Origin: Psychrobacter cryohalolentis K5
GTDB taxonomy: Bacteria > Pseudomonadota > Gammaproteobacteria > Pseudomonadales > Moraxellaceae
Reading direction: 5' to 3'
DNA length: 32,000 nucleotides
NCBI RefSeq assembly: GCF_000013905.1
Contig: NC_007969.1
Location: 2,610,001 to 2,642,000 of the forward strand
Positions within the stretch are counted from its first letter, which is position 1. Each line of letters opens with the position of its first letter. This document shows, one piece after another, positions 4,269-18,834 of the stretch. The notes beneath the pieces were generated by a model that was not told the origin of the DNA, searched no databases, and saw nothing but the letters and a program-made list of their open reading frames with translations. The position numbers and the translations under genes were made by a program.

Positions 4269-4679
4269 CTATGGTTTGGCAGGATAGCTTTCCCAGTAAT
4301 CAGCGATTGCTTTTGGAAAACAGTATTCTTTTGGCATCACAGTAATGGCGATGGGTACTAATATGGATTTGGTCACACCGCCGATACTGTCACAAGTGGC
4401 ATCGGTAGGTACGTCATAATAAATCACGCGCAAGGTATTCTGCGGACAGAGGTCTGAGCACTGAAAGGATTTGACCACTGCAATACCGTTATGCACGCCA
4501 ATGACCTTCTGCTGCGCACCTTCGGTTGGTGCTAATTCTTTTGGCTGGGCAGCTCGAATAAGATCAGCATCTGTTAAGATGTTTTCATTGGTAGGTAAAG
4601 AGACGCAAGCGCTTAGACTTAAAAACAAAGCACTTAAAGTGAGGGCTTTTGTAGTTGATGTTGTTTTCACAGTGAACAT
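4269..4679 (-). CDS. hypothetical lipoprotein (Cys-rich)
   Basis: 136-aa ORF with signal peptide and lipobox LSAC. A strong GAGGAG RBS overlaps the end of the upstream vWA gene (16-nt spacer), implying co-transcription. Confidence 0.7.
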   Translation of the reverse strand: MFTVKTTSTTKALTLSALFLSLSACVSLPTNENILTDADLIRAAQPKELAPTEGAQQKVIGVHNGIAVVKSFQCSDLCPQNTLRVIYYDVPTDATCDSIGGVTKSILVPIAITVMPKEYCFPKAIADYWESYPAKP

Positions 4680-4695
4680 GGCGGTTACTCCTCAG

Positions 4696-5991
4696 TTATG
4701 ATGTTATCAATCCAATCTTACGAGCTTCTTTTAGCCAGCTTGGGAACTCTTCTAGCATACTCTCATAAAGAGACTCTTCACTAATGTCATCCAAATCATC
4801 TAATTCAAAAAAATCGCAATTATCAATCACGCGCCCTTCCATGTCATCTAGTTTTTTTAGGATGCCATAACCACGACCACCCAAGCCCACAAACTGCCAA
4901 AATATCGGTAGTTTCGCGGCGTCCGTCATGACTCTGGTGATACCGCGATTGTCATTCACCCCGCCATCACTGATAAATAGCACGTATACGGGCACATCCA
5001 AGCCGTCTTTTTGATAAAAATCCGTCACGGCTTTCATGACTTCTGCTTCATTGTTAATGCGCGGGCCAAGTGCCCATTTGCGCCAGCCACCATGAGCGTT
5101 ATTGATGAAACCGTCATAGTTGCTAAGCCCAATCTCGCCCAAATACTGCGGATCTCGGGCAAACGCCCAGCAGTCTAGCGCTTGGTCGTCATCGAAGCTC
5201 ACTGCCAATGGCAATATGCGGTTGACCACTTCTTGCACGCGGCCTTTTTTGTACTGTCTGTTCATTGAGCCTGAGGCATCTAACACCAATGCTACCTTTG
5301 CGGTCAATTTCTGCAATTGGCGTTTCTCAAGCGATATCGTGGCTTTTTTGGCCAGATTGACGAGTTTTGGCGCTTTGTCTAGCATGACCTTCTCTAATGA
5401 CGGTTTTGCTTTAACTGGCGTGACGGTCGCCTCTACTGCTTGTGGGCTGCCCTCTTCTACATCGCCACCGAAATGCTGCACGATGGCGGCAAGTCCACCA
5501 TTAAAGCCTTGCGCGACGTTGGACACTCGCCAAACGCCACTCTTACGATAAAGCTGCATCAACATACTGGCTTGCTGCTGGGCAAAATCTACTGCTTGAT
5601 ATTCTGCCTGTACCTTTTGCGATTGCTGCCAAATACCAATCTCTAACGATTGAATTTGATTGAGCGGGGTGTCGGCTGATAACACAAAAAACAAGCTGTC
5701 TATATTGGTAGCCAGTTTGGATAAATTCACTTCAAACTCAGCTTGGATACCTTTATTCGCCGTTGGCTGCGATTCGTAATGGGTGAGCTTGATTTGCCCA
5801 CATGGAGAGGTCGGCTGATTATAAAACACCATGTAATCATCATTGATCAGTTTGCCCGCTGCATCTAAGGCAAAGCAACTGATGTCCATCTCTATTGGGC
5901 TTTGGCGAGTGAATTTGAGCGTGATTGGTGCGGTATCGTCAATAGCAAGATTGCTTAAAGGCGAGCGTTGTCCGACGGTGAGATGGTTCAT
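4696..5991 (-). CDS. TerD-domain / vWA (TerF-like) fusion protein
   Basis: The N-terminal region resembles TerD (DISCFALDAAGKLINDDYMVFYNQPTSPCGQIKL). The C-terminal vWA has a MIDAS DASGS motif (VALVLDASGSM). The ORF opens at 6009, but AAGGAA sits 5 nt before the ATG at 5991, so 5991 is my preferred start. Confidence 0.8.
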   Translation of the reverse strand: MNHLTVGQRSPLSNLAIDDTAPITLKFTRQSPIEMDISCFALDAAGKLINDDYMVFYNQPTSPCGQIKLTHYESQPTANKGIQAEFEVNLSKLATNIDSLFFVLSADTPLNQIQSLEIGIWQQSQKVQAEYQAVDFAQQQASMLMQLYRKSGVWRVSNVAQGFNGGLAAIVQHFGGDVEEGSPQAVEATVTPVKAKPSLEKVMLDKAPKLVNLAKKATISLEKRQLQKLTAKVALVLDASGSMNRQYKKGRVQEVVNRILPLAVSFDDDQALDCWAFARDPQYLGEIGLSNYDGFINNAHGGWRKWALGPRINNEAEVMKAVTDFYQKDGLDVPVYVLFISDGGVNDNRGITRVMTDAAKLPIFWQFVGLGGRGYGILKKLDDMEGRVIDNCDFFELDDLDDISEESLYESMLEEFPSWLKEARKIGLITS

Positions 5992-6030
5992 GGTGTTCCT
6001 TACATTCATAAAGATAATTATAAAAATAAT

Positions 6031-6046
6031 AGCGCACTAAAGCGCT
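6031..6046 (-). terminator. weak hairpin downstream of the STAND gene
   Basis: 5-bp GC stem agcgc/gcgct with a 6-nt loop, followed on the minus strand by an AT/T-rich run. It is short and may not terminate efficiently. Confidence 0.3.
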
Positions 6047-6050
6047 TCTA

Positions 6051-8471
6051 CTAGTTTTTAAACTTCATGTCGTTCAATCTCTTTAAAGATAAATTATGAT
6101 ATCGTACTGCATCATCTCTAATCTTAGCCTCATAGCCCGTAATAGCTTCACTCTTGGTGTTATATCCAATCTTGTTAAAAAATTTAATAGCTTCATTATA
6201 TAGGCTAACAGCATATTTATTATCACTTGAATTTTTTGCAATCTGATACCTTGCAATACCTTTTCTAAGAAAAACAAATGATTCAGACCTACCTTTCTTA
6301 ACACAAAGCTCTATAAACTCATCACCTTTTTTAATATTTTTTAGCTTGTAATAAGATAAAGCTACATTAACCATAGCATCAATATTATTTTGATCTAACT
6401 CAAATGCTTTTTCGGATAATAATAATGCTTTTTCAAAATTATTTGTTTTATTAATTAAAAGCCAAGCATAACGGTCATATAAATATGAGTTTATAGGATC
6501 ATCAACCAGAGCTAGTTCGTACATCTCAATAGCTTTGTCAATTTCTCCACGATCTGTGTGACTTTTAGCAAATCTAGCATATTCAGACCTAAATGCTTCT
6601 GAAACCCTATCAGTTTTGTAGCTTTTTTCCATTTCTTGTAGCTTTTTTCCATACAATTCAGCCTTTTGTGCCTTACTCTTAATATCGTCTTGTACATATT
6701 TAGTATAACTTGAGAATTGCTTTTTAAAGAACATCTGTGCCAAACTTACTATTTCGAAAATAAACTCTGAACCAAAATCAGTTATATTAGCGAAATAGGT
6801 TTCCTCATAAGCTTGAGTAAACTCTTCCTTATTAATTTCAACGAGTTGATAAATCTTATCCAGAACTCGATTATTAATTTCATGGTCAACATGAATAATT
6901 ACTAAGAAAACCTTTCTTTGAAGTTCATTCATCCTTAGCCAAGCATCTTCGTATAAGAATTCTAACAACTCTTCGTTTGAAAATTTGTAAAACTTATTCA
7001 AACCTTCATCTATGCCAGATTGAGAGTGTTTCATATATTTAACATATGCTTCAATAAGTAAGGGTTTATACATTAGTTTTTTGACAATTTTTCTTAATCT
7101 ATTTTCTCCAGCCTTATTAAGAGATTCTGCATTATAACGCGCAGATAGATTTTTCATAAGCTCTACGCTTTCAGACTCATTTAAACCTTCTATGAGTATT
7201 GGTTCGGCTTGTATTATTTCTCTTCTTCTAGAAGTTATAATAACTCTTGCGATATTTTTTGATATATATTTAACCCTCTCAGACAACTCCTTAACCTCAG
7301 TTGGAGAATTAGCTAAAGTTTCAGAATTATCAATAATTAGGAGAATATCATCTCTATTTATTTTATTTTTCTGTAGAATATTTTTTGCTTTGTCTACTAA
7401 TGCTCTACCATCAATACCGTACCATTCCTTAGATAAATCCGTCTGAGTCTTTACAATTTCTCGGATACAGTCATCAACCATTGGCTGTGCAGATTGAAAA
7501 TAAACTAAACCATCTTCAGTCCATTTAGTTTTCTTTGCAGAGTAATAACAAATGTATAATGGATTATTATTTTCTATTTCAAAATCACCATCTAAAAATT
7601 GGTTTAAAGACTCTAATATAAAAGTAGTTTTACCATATCCCCCATCACCATAAATAAGACAGACTCTTGAGTCTACATCGCTGTACCATTCTGTTAGTGT
7701 ATTAAGCTCTTTATTTCTACCATGAAATGAATCAGTTTGTCGGACTGGTATATTATGAAATAGAATATCGTTGCTTTCGTTATTTATTTCTACTAAGTCA
7801 TAACCTCGATTAGTATTTATACGTTCTATATTAAAAATTCGTGAATTATTTAAACCAAAGCTAAATTCTTCTGAATCAGTTATATTCAGTGTTTGACCCT
7901 TTAATCTCCATAAACCTTTTCTTTGTTTAATGGAGATAATCACAAATGGCTCTTCTTGATATAGTAACGGAATCGATATCTTGTGTTCATCAATTACCTT
8001 TAATTTGTTGTCAACTGATGGAATCAACCTCTCGCAAACCTCAAGTATCCTAGATGAAAGACTTATTAGCTTAGGTGCCCATTCTTCCGACTTTTTTAAA
8101 TCCAATACCCCATGTCCAGAAGAGGAGTTTCTAAACTCAATAAAATTGCGTAATTCATCCGCTAAGCTTATATTATCTTTTTTTTCAAACCATCCATCCA
8201 TAAACCTCTCATCAATATCAGTTCTAAATTTAGGAACTAAGTAATCCAAAATTTCATAAGGCAGTCCATCGGATGGTTTTTGAATCCTATCTATAAAGTC
8301 GGTAAGTCTTTCATCTTCCTCTAATCTTAATATAGATGTGGATATATCCAGACTTGTGAGAGCTATAACTTGTGTTAATGAGCGTATCAACGAGAATAGT
8401 GCATTACATTTTTCAATAACTGAGCTAATAGATGCTATTTCATCCAATTTAATATTGTATAAGCTTTTCAT
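6051..8471 (-). CDS. STAND (NB-ARC-like) P-loop NTPase with N-terminal HEPN-like helical domain and C-terminal TPR repeats; candidate NLR/Avs-like defence protein
   Basis: 806-aa ORF. The motifs run in order: FHGRNKELNTLTEW (aa 249-262), Walker A GDGGYGKTT (aa 275-283, nt 7623..7649), Walker B ILLIIDNSE (aa 376-384), RVIITSRRRE (aa 409-418), YKPLLIEA (aa 468-475). TPR-like repeats span about aa 640-790 (nt ~6102..6554). An RNSSSGH motif sits at aa 114-120 (nt 8112..8132). Hand counts of sampled 60-nt lines give about 23-27% G+C, against about 45-57% in the neighbouring genes. Confidence 0.85.
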   Translation of the reverse strand: MKSLYNIKLDEIASISSVIEKCNALFSLIRSLTQVIALTSLDISTSILRLEEDERLTDFIDRIQKPSDGLPYEILDYLVPKFRTDIDERFMDGWFEKKDNISLADELRNFIEFRNSSSGHGVLDLKKSEEWAPKLISLSSRILEVCERLIPSVDNKLKVIDEHKISIPLLYQEEPFVIISIKQRKGLWRLKGQTLNITDSEEFSFGLNNSRIFNIERINTNRGYDLVEINNESNDILFHNIPVRQTDSFHGRNKELNTLTEWYSDVDSRVCLIYGDGGYGKTTFILESLNQFLDGDFEIENNNPLYICYYSAKKTKWTEDGLVYFQSAQPMVDDCIREIVKTQTDLSKEWYGIDGRALVDKAKNILQKNKINRDDILLIIDNSETLANSPTEVKELSERVKYISKNIARVIITSRRREIIQAEPILIEGLNESESVELMKNLSARYNAESLNKAGENRLRKIVKKLMYKPLLIEAYVKYMKHSQSGIDEGLNKFYKFSNEELLEFLYEDAWLRMNELQRKVFLVIIHVDHEINNRVLDKIYQLVEINKEEFTQAYEETYFANITDFGSEFIFEIVSLAQMFFKKQFSSYTKYVQDDIKSKAQKAELYGKKLQEMEKSYKTDRVSEAFRSEYARFAKSHTDRGEIDKAIEMYELALVDDPINSYLYDRYAWLLINKTNNFEKALLLSEKAFELDQNNIDAMVNVALSYYKLKNIKKGDEFIELCVKKGRSESFVFLRKGIARYQIAKNSSDNKYAVSLYNEAIKFFNKIGYNTKSEAITGYEAKIRDDAVRYHNLSLKRLNDMKFKN
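6613..6652 (-). repeat. 20-bp tandem direct repeat (2 units, 18/20 identical) inside the STAND gene
   Basis: gttttgtagcttttttccat / ttcttgtagcttttttccat. On the coding strand, atggaaaaaagctacaa occurs twice at a 20-nt period, so it is read in two different frames (YGKKLQ and MEKSYK). Confidence 0.8.
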
Positions 8472-8531
8472 AAATTATCTCGAGTCTGAAGCTAAAAAGT
8501 AGGTAGTATTGTAATAAATTCTTAGGTGACT

Positions 8532-8623
8532 ATTGAGAGCTTTCATCTACGGCGTTAACTGCCATTCTAGCTCTGCCAGTTTCGCTTTTTCGGCATCGAC
8601 CACTTCGGCAGGTGCTTTACTGA
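8532..8623 (-). pseudogene. decayed duplicate of the valS 3' end (last ~30 codons), non-functional fragment
   Basis: 8560..8623 aligns by hand with valS 8853..8916 at about 57/64 identities. Read in the valS frame it gives [24 protein letters not shown] then a stop (cta at 8547..8549). Relative to the real end there are two 9-nt gaps. Confidence 0.75.
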
Positions 8624-8747
8624 TGATAATTTTTGCAGCTTATAAAGATATATTCGAGCTAATCTCAATAGGATATAGATAATAGCACACAAATATTCAG
8701 TATTTGGCAGTACTAATAGTTCTTTAGAGAACCAACTAGTAGACAAT

Positions 8748-8781
8748 AAAAAACGCCATCATAAATATGACAGCGTTTTTT
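8748..8781 (-). terminator. rho-independent terminator of valS (bidirectional shape)
   Basis: On the minus strand the stem is aacgctgtcat / atgatggcgtt, with two G-U pairs and a 4-nt loop, followed by a T6 run. It lies 26 nt after the valS stop. Confidence 0.65.
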
Positions 8782-8806
8782 ATTACTATAGATATTTACG
8801 CTTTAT

Positions 8807-11761
8807 TTACAACGCTTTCAACTGCTCCATCTGCGCCGTCATTGCCGTCAACTGTCCTTCTAGCTCAGCCAGTTTCGCCTTCTCAGCATCGACCACTTCC
8901 GCAGGTGCTTTACTGACAAAGCCTTCATTGCCTAGCTTACGGGCGATGCCTTCCGCTTGACCTTTCAACTTATCATATGACTTACCCAAACGTGCCAGCT
9001 CAGCCGTTGGATCAATCAGACCTTTCATCGGTACGAGTACACGTAGCTGACCGACCATACTTGATGACGATAGCGGCACTTCATCGCCTTCTTTGACGAT
9101 CTCTAAGCTCTCGACTTTGGCAAGCGCTTTGAACTGGTTTTTGATGCGTGATAGACGCGCATCTTCATCAGCAGAGATATTTTGTAGTAGTACTGGCAGA
9201 CGTACCGCGTTGCCCAGTTTCATCTCACCACGGATATTACGGACACTAGCGATTAGCTCCTGTAGCCACGCCATATCTGCCTCAACTTGCTCACTGATTT
9301 GTGCATCATCCGTTTTTGGATAGTCAGCGACTACGATGCTGTCAGTGTTTTTGCGACCCAATAGCGGTGCGACCGTCTGCCAGATTTGCTCAGTCAGATA
9401 CGGCATGATTGGATGACTAAAGCGTAGCGCTGTCTCTAGCACGTGCAGCAGTACATAGCGGATTTGCGCTTTACGTTCCTCTGATACCGAGTCATCATTT
9501 AGACTGGCTTTGGCAAGCTCAACGTACCAATCACAGTACTCGTTCCAGATAAACTCATAGATATCTTGGCTGACCATATCGAGACGATACTGAGCGAAAT
9601 GCTGATGGATATCGGCAACGGTAGAGTTCAGACGACTCATGATCCATTTTTCTGGTAATTCCCATACATCAGGATTCGCCGCTTGGTCGATAGGCTTGGC
9701 ATTGCCTTCGCTATCAACACAGTTCATGAGTACAAAACGGCTGGCGTTCCAGATTTTATTACAGAAGTTGCGATAGCCCTCGACACGCTTTAGATCAAAG
9801 TTAATATCGCGACCCGTACTGGCCAATGAGGTAAAGGTGAAGCGCAGTGCATCGGTACCAAAGGCTGGGATGCCTTCAGGGAACTCTTTACGCGTTTGCT
9901 TCTCAATCTTGGCCGCGTCTTTTGGATTCATCATGTTGCTGGTACGTTTTTCTACCAGCGCTTCCAGATCAATACCATCGATGAGGTCAATCGGATCTAA
10001 GACGTTACCTTTAGATTTTGACATTTTTTGACCATTGCCATCACGTACCAGACCATGCACATAGACAGTCTTAAACGGTACTTGCGGCGTGCCGTCTTCG
10101 TTTTTCACGAAGTGCATGGTCATCATGATCATGCGGGCAACCCAAAAGAAGATAATGTCAAAACCCGTCACCAACACGCTGGTCGGGTGGAAGGTGTCCA
10201 TCACGCGTGGATCAGCGTTGACGTCTGCCCAGTCAAGCGTACTGAACGTCCATAGACCAGAACTGAACCACGTATCGAGCACGTCATTATCTTGGCGCAA
10301 TACGATATCATCGCTTAGACTGTACTTGCTACGCACTTCCGCTTCGTCACGGGCGACATAGATTTCACCCGTCGCATCGTCATACCATGCAGGGATACGA
10401 TGACCCCACCACAACTGACGGCTGATGCACCAATCTTGCAGATCGGTCATCCACGACATATACATGTTTTTGTACTGCGCAGGGACGAACTCGATGCTGC
10501 CGTCTTCTACTGCGTCAATCGCAGGCTTGGCCAACTCTTTAACCGCGACATACCACTGATCGGTCAACCACGGCTCAACGATCGTACCGCCACGCTCAGC
10601 ACGTGGGGCTTTGAGTGCATAGTCTTCGATATCTTCTAGCCAGCCCTGCTCGCCTGCTTGCTCAACAAGGAATTTACGCGCCGCAAAACGCTCAAGTCCA
10701 GCGTATTCACTTGGCGTGGTTTCTAATGTTGGCTCACGTGTTTGTAGATCAGGATAAACTTCCATCGCTGGCAAAATGTTAGCGCGCTCATCAAGGATAT
10801 TAATCAATGGCAAGTTATGACGACGACCAAGTTCATAGTCATTAAAGTCATGGGCTGGGGTGATTTTTACGCAACCGGTACCAAATTCGATATCAACATA
10901 ATCATCGGCAACGATAGGCACAATGCGACCAGTGATTGGCAAGGTAATGGTTTTGCCAATCAAATGCGCGTAACGCTCGTCCTTTGGATTGACGGCAACG
11001 GCGGTGTCACCCAGTAAGGTTTCAGGGCGCGTGGTGGCGACGACCAGATAGTTTTTGCCCTCTTGGGTTTGCAACTCTTTATCAGTGAAATGATAGCGGA
11101 AATGCCATAAGCTGCCTTTTTCATCGACGTTTTCTACTTCCAAATCCGATAGCGCCGTTTGGAACTTAGGATCCCAGTTGACCAGACGCTTACCACGATA
11201 GATAAGTCCATCGTCGAACAGGCGTACGAACACTTCTTTTACCGCATTAGACAAACCGTCATCCATGGTAAAGCGCTCACGTGACCAATCAACCGAGCTG
11301 CCCAAACGGCGAATTTGGCTGGTGATATTACCGCCCGACTCTTCTTTCCATTCCCATACTTTATCGATGAAATCTTCACGCGTCATATCACGGCGCTTGA
11401 TACCTTGCGCCTCCAAACGACGCTCAACGACCATTTGGGTCGCGATACCTGCATGATCCGTACCTGGCTGCCAAAGCGTGTTGTCGCCATCCATGCGGTG
11501 GTAACGTGTGAGCGCATCCATGATTGCATTGTTAAAACCATGACCCATATGCAGCGAGCCAGTGACGTTCGGTGGCGGCAAGGCAATAGAAAATGACTCG
11601 TCTTTGTCAAAAGTCGGCTGGAAATAGCCGCTTTCTTCCCAACCTTGATACATGCCCGCTTCGACTTCCGCAGGATTATAGGCGTTTTCAAGTTGGCTAA
11701 GTGCCGCTTGGATAAATTGGGTCAGGTTAGTTTTGCTGCTTTGAATATCAGGAGTGCTCAT
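8807..11761 (-). CDS. valS: valine--tRNA ligase
   Basis: 984-aa ORF with class I HIGH motif ([11 protein letters not shown]), KMSKS motif ([10 protein letters not shown]) and the C-terminal coiled coil typical of ValRS. Confidence 0.98.
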
Positions 11762-17331: not shown

Positions 17332-18834
17332 CTACTCTTCTGAGTCATCGATCATCAATACCGCATTACGCACATCGGCTAAACGCTGAATCATCGCATC
17401 ATTGCCACCATCGAATATTGCACACTCACGCTCATAAACCGTCGTTGGACGCATGACGCTTTGTACTTGTACGTGATGACTGATTTGTTTAAGACCACCA
17501 TTCGGCAATAAAATCAGCATCTGCTCTTTTTTGCCGACGCTATCTAGCAGATGCGTCATGGCATCGACTTGGGCATTGTCACTCACACCAGCTTTGGCTG
17601 GCAGCGCAAATCGTGACAGCTCAATATGCTTATCATGAATAATTTTATTCAGCATCAAGTATAGCTTGGCTAGCATCACGCCTGCCAATGCAACTTTTGC
17701 ATGGCTATTCTCTGCTTTAAGCATCACATAAGCACCACTTTCATCAAATTGTGGTTCATTGAGTGCGCTCACGCCCAACAACAATGGCTGTTTCAGTAAT
17801 TCAGTCACCGCTTGGTTTAGTAGCTGCGTACAGAGTGCCAAATACGGCAGACGTTGAGACGGTGCCAAGCGCTCAAGCATATTAAACTCATCATGAAAGA
17901 CAATCTGGACACTGACACTATCAAATGCTCTGGTAGCAGACAATCGAGAGACATGATTGTTAGCATGCTGGCTACTGTCTTCAGCTTTATAAGCCGTATG
18001 ATCATTGACATCACTGTCTATCATATTACTGGCAGTATCCGCAGTTGTACCGTTAGTATTATCATCGAGCGTCGAATCTTGATTCTGCTGGGTTCTGACA
18101 TACTGATTGACAGCACTATGAATATCTAATTTACGCGTATTAGGTTGCTGGTTATACGCTGTACTGGCAGCTGCTTGAGCAGCATTGACTAAACGATCAC
18201 TTTGGCTAGTACCTGTCTCACCATTATCACCATCAGCAGCAGACACTGATTGACGACGTTCTCGCTCACGAGCATAACCACGCTGGTCGAGCTGCGTATA
18301 TTGCTCGCGATGCAAGTCTTGAACATCGCGGCTGATGGCATTGATTTGCTCTCTGGTTGGACGAGCGATATAGCTGTAAATCAGCCACAGCAATAAATGC
18401 AGCACCATCGAACCAATCACAAATGGCCATTGCATGGCGATGATTTCACCCTTGCTAATATCCTTTAGAGTCAATGCCACACTACCGATGACTGCATCGC
18501 CTTTGGTTGCAATTTGGCTAATGGTATCACCCTGCTGCATCGGCGCATTGCCGACAGGCACCAAGATATCGCCATTATTGTCTTTAATCAGGATGCGAGT
18601 CACGTCTTGTTCGCTGGTATAGCGATTGGCAATAACGCTTAAGCTGACGCGGTCTTTATTTTCTAAAGACAGGCGCGCTTCATCAATGAGCTGAGCAACC
18701 ATTTGCTCGCCTTTTTGCGCACGACTGTTGCTCAGCTGTTGATCGGTACTGATGACCAATAATAGGGTTTGCAAACAAAAACTAACCAGAAGAATGATGG
18801 CAAACAACCCTTGCCGCGGCGCTAAATAGGTCAT
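17332..18834 (-). CDS. membrane-anchored protein, N-terminal region AhpA/YtjB(Smp)-like, long disordered linker and unknown C-terminal domain
   Basis: 500-aa ORF with an N-terminal TM and a second TM near aa 135-155. It is divergent from serB, as smp/ytjB is in E. coli. The family call rests on synteny and topology only. Confidence 0.5.
   Translation of the reverse strand: MTYLAPRQGLFAIILLVSFCLQTLLLVISTDQQLSNSRAQKGEQMVAQLIDEARLSLENKDRVSLSVIANRYTSEQDVTRILIKDNNGDILVPVGNAPMQQGDTISQIATKGDAVIGSVALTLKDISKGEIIAMQWPFVIGSMVLHLLLWLIYSYIARPTREQINAISRDVQDLHREQYTQLDQRGYARERERRQSVSAADGDNGETGTSQSDRLVNAAQAAASTAYNQQPNTRKLDIHSAVNQYVRTQQNQDSTLDDNTNGTTADTASNMIDSDVNDHTAYKAEDSSQHANNHVSRLSATRAFDSVSVQIVFHDEFNMLERLAPSQRLPYLALCTQLLNQAVTELLKQPLLLGVSALNEPQFDESGAYVMLKAENSHAKVALAGVMLAKLYLMLNKIIHDKHIELSRFALPAKAGVSDNAQVDAMTHLLDSVGKKEQMLILLPNGGLKQISHHVQVQSVMRPTTVYERECAIFDGGNDAMIQRLADVRNAVLMIDDSEE

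Follow-up and report, generated by a model that had tools for sequence, protein, structure and literature searches.

A STAND gene of foreign composition between valS and a TerD-vWA gene

A 32,000-nt stretch of the Psychrobacter cryohalolentis K5 genome (NCBI RefSeq assembly GCF_000013905.1, contig NC_007969.1, positions 2,610,001 to 2,642,000 of the forward strand), referred to here as the window, was analysed with a focus on a single gene encoding an 806-aa STAND NTPase that resembles NOD-like receptors (NLRs). This gene lies between valS and a gene specifying a TerD and vWA-TerF-like fusion protein (referred to as the vWA gene). The gene, its neighbours and the associated transcription signals are located as follows (window coordinates).

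6051..8471, minus strand: STAND/NLR-like gene, 806 aa, based on the open reading frame (ORF) call, Pfam matches, homologs and an AlphaFold2 model
8807..11761, minus strand: valS, core gene and left hotspot flank
4696..5991, minus strand: TerD plus vWA-TerF-like gene, core gene and right hotspot flank, guanine-plus-cytosine (GC) content 0.47
8745..8784, minus strand: valS terminator hairpin, an inverted repeat with 19-nt arms of 89% complementarity, followed by a T-run
6031..6046, minus strand: small, GC-rich terminator-like hairpin with a T-run, directly 3' of the STAND stop codon

The STAND ORF, which had been recognized in a preliminary description of this DNA made from the letters alone, was found to be intact and uninterrupted from its ATG start to the stop codon at 6051-6053, and a stop-free run of 806 codons would arise by chance with a probability of ~10^-32.6, given the gene's own base composition. 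This composition is foreign to the locus: the gene exhibits a GC content of 0.307 and a third-codon-position GC content (GC3) of 0.233, compared with values of 0.42-0.49 and 0.42-0.51, respectively, for neighbouring genes. Since the remaining 2421-nt segments of the window have a mean GC content of 0.426 (standard deviation 0.019, minimum 0.394), the STAND gene lies ~6 standard deviations below its surroundings. The strong AT bias reported in the preliminary description was thus borne out, while its hand-counted value of 23-27% G+C was too low (the gene mean is 31% and 500-nt segments within the gene range from 27 to 33%) and its estimate of 45-57% for the flanks was slightly high (47% for the vWA gene and 49% for valS).

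The STAND gene constitutes a separate transcription unit, because the valS terminator is located upstream and the gene possesses its own terminator-like hairpin downstream. The latter hairpin (6031-6046) is positioned just ahead of the ribosome-binding site and ATG of the next gene, i.e. the vWA gene, which as called starts at 5991 and encodes 431 aa. No Rfam family was matched across the whole window, and neither a recombinase gene nor a partner gene of matching composition was found nearby in the window, in agreement with the preliminary description.

Domain architecture and the STAND ATPase core

An AlphaFold2 model of the full protein, built on 66 homologs, exhibited a mean pLDDT of 85.6; residue invariance, as mentioned throughout, was counted over 66 sequences. 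The protein consists of an N-terminal helical domain, a small beta domain, a core composed of a nucleotide-binding domain, a helical domain and a winged-helix domain, and four to five tetratricopeptide repeat (TPR) hairpins. The corresponding segments are as follows.

8031..8471, minus strand: N-terminal all-alpha domain (aa 1-147), candidate HEPN-like effector, six helices in the model
7743..8030, minus strand: beta-rich domain (aa 148-243), with strands at 176-184, 187-194, 202-207, 224-230 and 236-242
7182..7742, minus strand: nucleotide-binding domain (aa 244-430), with NB-ARC and ATPase_2 matches, Walker A, Walker B and a TSR sensor motif
6702..7181, minus strand: helical and winged-helix domains (aa 431-590), based on AlphaFold2 secondary structure and Foldseek alignments
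6054..6701, minus strand: linker helix and short TPR-like sensor (aa 591-806), based on the model, Foldseek and weak Pfam TPR matches

Two Pfam models matched the core above their cutoffs, each by a small margin: ATPase_2 (35.1 bits, cutoff 33.2, aa 249-412) and NB-ARC (25.3 bits, cutoff 23.5, aa 255-482). All STAND motifs quoted in the preliminary description were present and colinear. Walker A (GDGGYGKTT, aa 275-283, including the lysine K281) occupies exactly the predicted position, nt 7623..7649, and is followed by Walker B (ILLIIDN, with D381, at nt 7320-7346), RVIITSRRRE (aa 409-418) and KPLL (aa 469-472). Residues G275-T283, D381, N382, E384 and T413-R416 are invariant.

Structural comparison with the Protein Data Bank (PDB) using Foldseek returned Apaf-1 as the top match (E 2.8e-8), followed by SAMD9, Roq1, CED-4 and the AVAST5 filament (E-values up to 4e-5) and, at lower ranks, ORC/Cdc6 and consensus TPR proteins; MamA was matched in the TPR region as well. 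The alignments with Apaf-1, CED-4 and Roq1 cover the nucleotide-binding, helical and winged-helix domains. A D[GAS]hDE signature that follows Walker B defines the NACHT clade of bacterial NLR-related proteins (bNACHT; Kibby et al.), whereas the sequence found here is D381-N-S-E-T, and the Pfam NACHT model scored 12.4 bits against a cutoff of 26.7 (E 0.14). Based on the NB-ARC match, the Apaf-1/CED-4 fold and the absence of the NACHT signature, the core was assigned to the AP-ATPase/NB-ARC type of STAND NTPases.

C-terminal to the nucleotide-binding domain lie ~376 aa, in which the model contains a long linker helix (aa 591-619) and nine or ten TPR-like helices (aa 624-805), while every Pfam TPR model remained below its cutoff on the 806-aa protein. 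Together with the NB-ARC match and the Apaf-1-like model, these helices uphold the effector, NB-ARC-like STAND and TPR order proposed in the preliminary description. An NCBIfam scan of the 806-aa protein yielded nothing meaningful. Conservation is unevenly distributed, as mean identity to distant members amounts to 0.53 in the nucleotide-binding domain and 0.49 in the first TPR half (aa 624-725), and to 0.31-0.37 in the last 80 aa, the linker helix, the beta domain and the N-terminal domain. Specificity may reside in the variable tail, and contacts that maintain autoinhibition in the conserved TPR half.

The N-terminal domain as a candidate HEPN-type effector

The preliminary description had assigned no family to the N-terminal ~250 aa. 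No profile matched this region at cutoff; it probably comprises a HEPN-like, divergent domain followed by a small beta domain. When modelled separately, the N-terminal domain was predicted with a pLDDT of 87.9 and a pTM of 0.82, and its six helices span residues 2-13, 18-46, 54-63, 70-85, 103-116 and 125-145. Residues R30, P80, R114, N115 and H120 are invariant, and S31, Q34, R62, D68, R83, E96 and W131 are nearly so. Three of the invariant residues form the following motif.

8112..8132, minus strand: R114-N115-x4-H120 motif of the Rx4-6H type, invariant in 66 sequences

In most members, this motif reads F-R-N-x4-H-G, while a few (P0048, P0067 and P0106) carry R-N-x3-H (Rx4H); since the spacer length differs between members, an insertion or deletion is tolerated as long as R, N and H are kept. 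In the model, R114 and N115 close helix 103-116 and H120 is located in the next loop, which is followed by helix 125-145. In HEPN domains, the active site has been described as an Rx4-6H motif in which the arginine is followed by a polar residue (N, D or H) and which straddles a helix end and the beginning of the loop leading to the following helix; such domains often contain inserts between helices 2 and 3 (Anantharaman et al. 2013, PMC3710099). The R114-N115-x4-H120 motif corresponds to this description in spacing, in the polar asparagine and in its HEPN-like position within the secondary structure.

Furthermore, when 32 N-termini were scanned singly against Pfam, the sole recurrent matches were to HEPN families, all of them sub-threshold: DUF3644 (E 2.5e-4, 21.2 bits, cutoff 27.6), HEPN_MAE_28990 (E 0.005 and 0.046, 17.5 bits, cutoff 26.8) and HEPN (E 0.18). 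The DUF3644 and HEPN_MAE_28990 matches that were located fall at residues 83-172 in two homologs, at the motif-bearing end of the profile.

Several results weigh against a HEPN assignment. None of the Pfam HEPN models was matched at cutoff, and only three to four of the 32 N-termini showed any HEPN-family match. Alignment of the N-terminal alignment with that of a MAE_28990-type HEPN protein/family by hhalign was negative (probability 0.2%), a Foldseek search with the confident N-terminal model returned no significant match in the PDB or BFVD, and the N-terminal profile matched no PDB sequence at E-values up to 10. HEPN families barely resemble one another, and the negative hhalign result is therefore compatible with a HEPN domain.

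The same negatives are what would be expected if the gene encoded a solo STAND defence sensor whose N-terminal 245 aa represent a new-fold effector or adaptor rather than a HEPN RNase, acting through another enzymatic activity, membrane disruption or recruitment of a host factor, as SeAvs7 incorporates EF-Tu. A confidently modelled domain that lacks structural neighbours in both the PDB and BFVD, matches no Pfam profile at cutoff and fails to align with a HEPN family is consistent with such a fold, as are the many further polar residues held invariant or nearly so (R30, S31, Q34, R62, D68, R83 and E96). The domain is also narrowly distributed, as an exhaustive HMMER search of 1.84 billion representatives with a profile of the N-terminal 250 aa retrieved 100 clusters, nearly all of which are members of the STAND family or fragments thereof, so that the domain almost never occurs outside this architecture. 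However, a new fold would leave unexplained why an invariant R-N-x4/5-H motif carries the HEPN-typical polar residue after its arginine at the HEPN-typical structural position, and why HEPN families account for the only recurrent weak Pfam matches, which coincide with the motif segment; HEPN bundles, moreover, notoriously tend to escape both sequence-based and Foldseek detection. A new-fold effector is regarded as rather unlikely, and the motif, its position and the weak profile matches tilt the balance slightly towards a divergent HEPN-type effector. For the adjoining beta domain, the Foldseek matches to SH3-like barrels (e.g. EF-P and eIF5A) did not exceed chance level.

A rare family in diverse genomic contexts

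A word-indexed search identified 166 homologs, with 38-99% identity among the matches listed. Most of these listed homologs are 800-835 aa long, with alignments covering 90-100% of the query, which indicates that the whole architecture is conserved, including the unannotated N-terminus. Their hosts include Klebsiella, Providencia/Proteus, Yersinia, Pantoea, Enterobacter and Pectobacterium as well as Acinetobacter, Pseudomonas, Stutzerimonas, Shewanella, Vibrio, Aeromonas, Halomonas, Marinobacterium and Burkholderia. In the source records, the homologs are variously labelled 'NB-ARC domain-containing', 'tetratricopeptide repeat protein', 'ATP-binding protein' or 'hypothetical'. When complete Escherichia coli genomes were queried with the Yersinia gene, two of 5,426 contained a detectable copy. 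The family is therefore rare, yet spread widely over Gammaproteobacteria and at least one Burkholderia. Among the clusters retrieved with the N-terminal profile, two proteins deviate from the usual organization: P0259 (1386 aa), in which a Ser/Thr protein kinase is fused ahead of the unit formed by the N-terminal domain, STAND core and TPRs, and P0278 (1334 aa), which contains two tandem STAND modules.

Full-length homologs with 38-49% identity to the window protein were found on several kinds of mobile elements. Those of E. coli CH4799 and Yersinia enterocolitica reside in P4-like satellites, between psu and the integrase gene (int), an interval known as a defence hotspot of P4 satellites (Rousset et al. 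2022, PMC9122126). The Klebsiella homolog is located within a P2-like prophage, between gpU and tail-fibre genes, that of Acinetobacter baumannii is cargo of a Tn7-like transposon adjoining a type II CBASS operon, and that of Pseudomonas aeruginosa lies in an integrative and conjugative element (ICE) adjoining SIR2+HerA and ParDE. A tblastn search of 50,697 phage records with the Klebsiella homolog gave no match, though this gene sits in a P2-like prophage, and a tblastn search of plasmids with the window protein gave merely two distant partial STAND matches. Across the six different contexts, no gene adjoining the homologs is conserved, which supports single-gene status and is in line with the earlier proposal that the protein works alone.

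The window protein belongs to the same family as system #63 of Table S1B of Rousset et al. 2022, an 'NLR-like protein' (e.g. E. coli WP_097339842.1) that was catalogued and is not among the systems tested in that paper; the two share 41% identity over 398 published residues (E 1e-102). The papers searched contained no accession numbers of the family, and its motifs were absent from the bNACHT supplements. Identity with the tested systems 'HEPN-TPR', 'NOD-1', 'NOD-2' and TIR-NLR of Rousset et al. 2022 was considered and rejected, as these are other sequences, those of 'HEPN-TPR', 'NOD-1' and 'NOD-2' being unrelated.

STAND-TPR regulators such as MalT and AfsR exist, and the carriers of the family (P4 and P2 elements, a Tn7-like transposon and an ICE) raise the question of whether the protein could serve these elements, for instance by stabilization or exclusion of rivals, as a STAND-type regulator or signalling protein or as an addiction module, rather than acting as a dedicated anti-phage sensor. 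The conserved first TPR half and the lack of a PADLOC match would fit this role. Conversely, the Pfam scan of the 806-aa protein detected no DNA-binding or helix-turn-helix domain, the positions occupied are accessory cargo slots of defence genes (P4 psu-int, PMC9122126, and sites beside CBASS and SIR2-HerA), and the Psychrobacter copy is located in a chromosomal hotspot that lacks mobile-element genes. A role in the service of carrier elements is deemed improbable.

The valS-vWA interval is a defence-gene hotspot in Psychrobacter

With the TerD-vWA neighbour as anchor, 72 Psychrobacter-type loci were retrieved, one genome per species; interval statistics cover the ~60 loci in which valS and the vWA gene lie on one contig, and ORFs of at least 140 aa were regarded as cargo. 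The vWA gene occurs in all 72 loci retrieved with it, at 74-96% aa identity. Homology of the window to the ~60 other Psychrobacter loci stops near 8800-8808, i.e. at the valS stop codon or shortly downstream, and again near 6002-6006, returning ~11-15 nt before the vWA start. These borders delimit the following islet.

6007..8806, no strand assigned: low-GC variable islet, GC 0.311, from the valS stop codon to the conserved region upstream of the vWA gene

Across the ~60 loci, the valS-to-vWA interval spans 0.95-7.4 kb and its GC content is always low (0.25-0.39). The ORFs in this interval were grouped into 61 cargo clusters, 42 of which are singletons. PADLOC matches among the cargo comprise Thoeris ThsB (E 3e-99), PARIS AriA, Septu PtuA, Gabija GajA, Menshen NsnB, HEC-06 and PDC-S49. 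The cargo also includes a full-length DRT RT_UG5-nitrilase (1e-205), PD-T4-6-like kinases, a SIR2 protein resembling ThsA and a Ppl-like ATPase, as well as proteins with the Pfam domains GmrSD with RiboL-PSP/MAE_28990 HEPN nuclease, TIR, KAP and PIN. As known defence genes fill the slot in other species, the interval was identified as a defence-gene hotspot in which the STAND gene is one alternative cargo. An integrase or recombinase gene was not seen in any islet.

The comparison of presence and absence across related genomes, which the preliminary description had set beforehand to probe its claim of a variable islet, thus came out strongly in favour of that claim and of horizontal acquisition: the STAND gene occupies the site in one of ~60 other Psychrobacter species, Psychrobacter maritimus Pi2-20 (L024), where it is 97-98% identical. 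This copy (4622-7938) is broken by a ~0.9-kb insertion of an IS630-family element (DDE_3) after aa 358 and by a frameshift near aa 609. Such decay, in combination with a promoter scan at chance level and very atypical codon usage (reflected in the GC3 value), could indicate a passenger gene of recent acquisition that has no function in its host or is in the course of decay there. In P. cryohalolentis K5, however, the ORF is uninterrupted and matches the full length of the family, every family-invariant residue has been retained, the gene has its own terminator, and an identical protein is present in several samples, which together make a decaying passenger highly improbable.

The TerD-vWA neighbour was considered as a functional partner of the STAND protein and rejected, as it is core in Psychrobacter, has native GC content and is absent beside homologs elsewhere. 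Relatives of this TerD and vWA-TerF-like fusion, with 34-35% identity, were observed in Bacillaceae (Guptibacillus and Bacillus sp.).

Comparison with known defence systems

The closest known counterpart is the aforementioned system #63, which displays full-length homology, a similar length (~808 aa; 808 aa for the E. coli ortholog), a solo-gene organization and the same RN..H, Walker A and Walker B motifs. It differs in host and in carrier, i.e. the psu-int interval of a P4-like satellite as opposed to the chromosomal valS-vWA islet described here.

The Avs/AVAST systems (Gao 2020, 2022; Lee et al. 2026) share with the window protein the effector-STAND-TPR order, the single-gene format, residence in defence islands and horizontal movement, and AVAST5 is among its structural matches. 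Conversely, a PADLOC scan of the 806-aa protein yielded no family match at E-values up to 1, Avs1-5 included, and the protein has ~180 aa of TPR helices and an unannotated effector domain. The Avs-like class proposed in the preliminary description therefore holds for the effector-STAND-repeat architecture, not for membership of Avs1-5 or of any other PADLOC family. A recent census of STAND proteins named Avs7-24 and limited its sensor analysis to C-terminal regions of at least 400 aa (Lee et al. 2026, Nature); as ~376 aa follow the nucleotide-binding domain, the present family may lie outside that sensor analysis.

A validated TIR-NLR (Rst_TIR-NLR, Rousset 2022) exhibits the same order of effector, NB-ARC-like STAND module and TPRs, originates from the P4 satellite hotspot and is of similar size, as its HHpred matches reach approximately residue 824. 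The window protein, which had been described as unusually compact, is thus not exceptional in length. The two differ in their effectors: a TIR domain (NAD+ depletion) in the former, and a helical domain with an RN..H motif plus a beta domain in the latter. Apaf-1, CED-4 and plant NLRs provide the best structural matches for the core, with TSR at the hhhTTR position and KPLL at the GLPL position, whereas identity amounts to 11-14%, the sensor consists of TPRs instead of WD40 repeats or LRRs, and the effector region is different.

Bacterial fusions of HEPN, STAND and TPR modules, e.g. Npun_F6454 and MED222_16016, have been noted previously, with a predicted role in biological conflict systems (PMC3710099). 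In architecture, on which this comparison is based, they resemble the window protein in having an N-terminal Rx4-6H domain, a STAND ATPase and TPRs, while the HEPN assignment of the latter is sub-threshold. The bNACHT proteins (Kibby et al.) are likewise NLR-related, single-protein bacterial defences with an N-terminal effector and a C-terminal sensor; unlike these, the window protein lacks the D[GAS]hDE signature and scores below the NACHT cutoff. Overall, the family is separate from the PADLOC-modelled families and from NACHT, and is already catalogued in a defence hotspot.

Proposed function

An anti-phage defence role for the STAND gene is considered very likely. More specifically, a horizontally acquired single-gene anti-phage sensor, carried as hotspot cargo and equipped with a proposed HEPN-type RNase effector, is considered reasonably probable as an explanation of the locus as a whole.

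By analogy with Avs, bNACHT and TIR-NLR, the TPR end, probably through its variable last 80 aa, would bind a phage-derived or phage-altered ligand, and autoinhibition would be released upon binding. The P-loop module (K281 and D381) would then bind ATP and drive oligomerization, bringing the N-terminal domains together. As HEPN RNases act as dimers with a composite site, this proximity would switch on RNA cleavage: the N-terminal domain is proposed to be a metal-independent HEPN-type RNase whose composite R114/N115/H120 site becomes active on dimerization, and, once activated, it may cleave cellular and/or phage RNA and thereby cause abortive infection.

Certain observations run counter to a sensor of this type. 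The first TPR half is conserved to a degree similar to the ATPase, unlike fast-evolving sensors, and the TPR-like helices cover ~180 aa (~215 aa with the linker helix), much shorter than the sensors of characterized Avs proteins. In addition, the literature searched contained no family member with tested anti-phage activity, not a single PADLOC model matched the family, and the surroundings of the Burkholderia homolog lack obvious mobile or defence genes. A tentative alternative formulation takes the sensor length into account: the protein could be a minimal bacterial NLR, with a hitherto unrecognized, very divergent HEPN-like RNase or a new fold, a small beta-barrel and a sensor of four to five TPR hairpins. 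A sensor too short to wrap a phage structural protein in the manner of Avs would have to respond to a different class of cue, possibly a small protein encoded by the phage, a host factor that has been modified, or a short peptide or degron, and the family would then represent a functional class not covered by the sensor analysis of Lee et al. 2026. This formulation, including its candidate cues, is viewed as somewhat doubtful.

Additional hotspot cargo and flank-derived repeats

The commonest cargo in the Psychrobacter hotspot (cluster c0) is a protein of 518-692 aa that was found in 16 loci, ORF fragments counted (members include L021:5873-7948, L035, L066, L014, L072, L031, L044, L027, L053 and L059). 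It has no PADLOC match and a sub-threshold Pfam match to pentapeptide repeats, and is a candidate defence gene of no known family. Clusters c13 (587 aa), c42 (822 aa), c57 (569 aa) and c58 (697 aa) likewise had no PADLOC match. Cluster c1, an NhaC-type Na+/H+ antiporter, is present in the interval of seven species (L062:2874-4355 and six further loci). In five of the seven, the NhaC gene directly follows valS; in all seven, it is succeeded by a copy of the valS end (valS') and then by defence-type cargo, and its presence indicates that non-defence genes can also be captured in the slot. Cluster c1 had been considered as an integrase that might account for the valS repeats, which was rejected in view of its identity as an antiporter.

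The window contains such a repeat as well, a short way upstream of the STAND gene in the segment that separates its start from the valS terminator.

8553..8623, minus strand: decayed 71-nt copy of the valS 3' coding end, 89% identical to 8846-8916

Similar repeats, in which the terminal 70-170 nt of valS are directly repeated in decayed form, occur in 15 of 75 related loci, where one to three copies precede successive cassettes and mostly end at the valS stop codon. In locus L064, for example, the order is valS, a 118-aa ORF, valS', a 224-aa ORF, valS', NhaC, valS', a 399-aa ORF and the vWA gene. The copies in this locus and in L062 are located as follows.

L064, 3281-3404, 4313-4435 and 6190-6313: valS copies
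L062, 2535-2686 and 4368-4428: valS copies

Extra copies of the vWA 5' region (first ~200 nt) were found in ten loci. The flank-derived copies suggest cassette accretion, which could proceed through single-crossover insertion of circular fragments, homology-facilitated illegitimate recombination or an integrase acting in trans.

Many draft assemblies break within the hotspot, at a distance of 0.2-3.7 kb upstream from the vWA gene (L010, L011, L015, L016, L022, L029, L033, L034, L036, L045, L046, L054, L056, L083 and L084). These breaks hint at repeats (insertion sequence elements and valS' copies) or at poor coverage of AT-rich cargo. Elsewhere in the window, a 500-aa ORF at 17332-18834 (minus strand) is a called gene without a Pfam family on record, flanked by a DUF8197 mini-gene.

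Significance

If the proposed function is confirmed, an experimentally untried NLR-like family would join the anti-phage repertoire. Its unusually small sensor would make it a convenient minimal model for the switching of STAND immune receptors, and its effector matches no current profile or solved structure. The valS-vWA slot represents a natural catalogue for the discovery of new defence genes, with 61 cargo clusters of which several have no known family, and is perhaps a more useful by-product than the STAND gene itself, while the flank-derived repeats may reveal how hotspots exchange cassettes.

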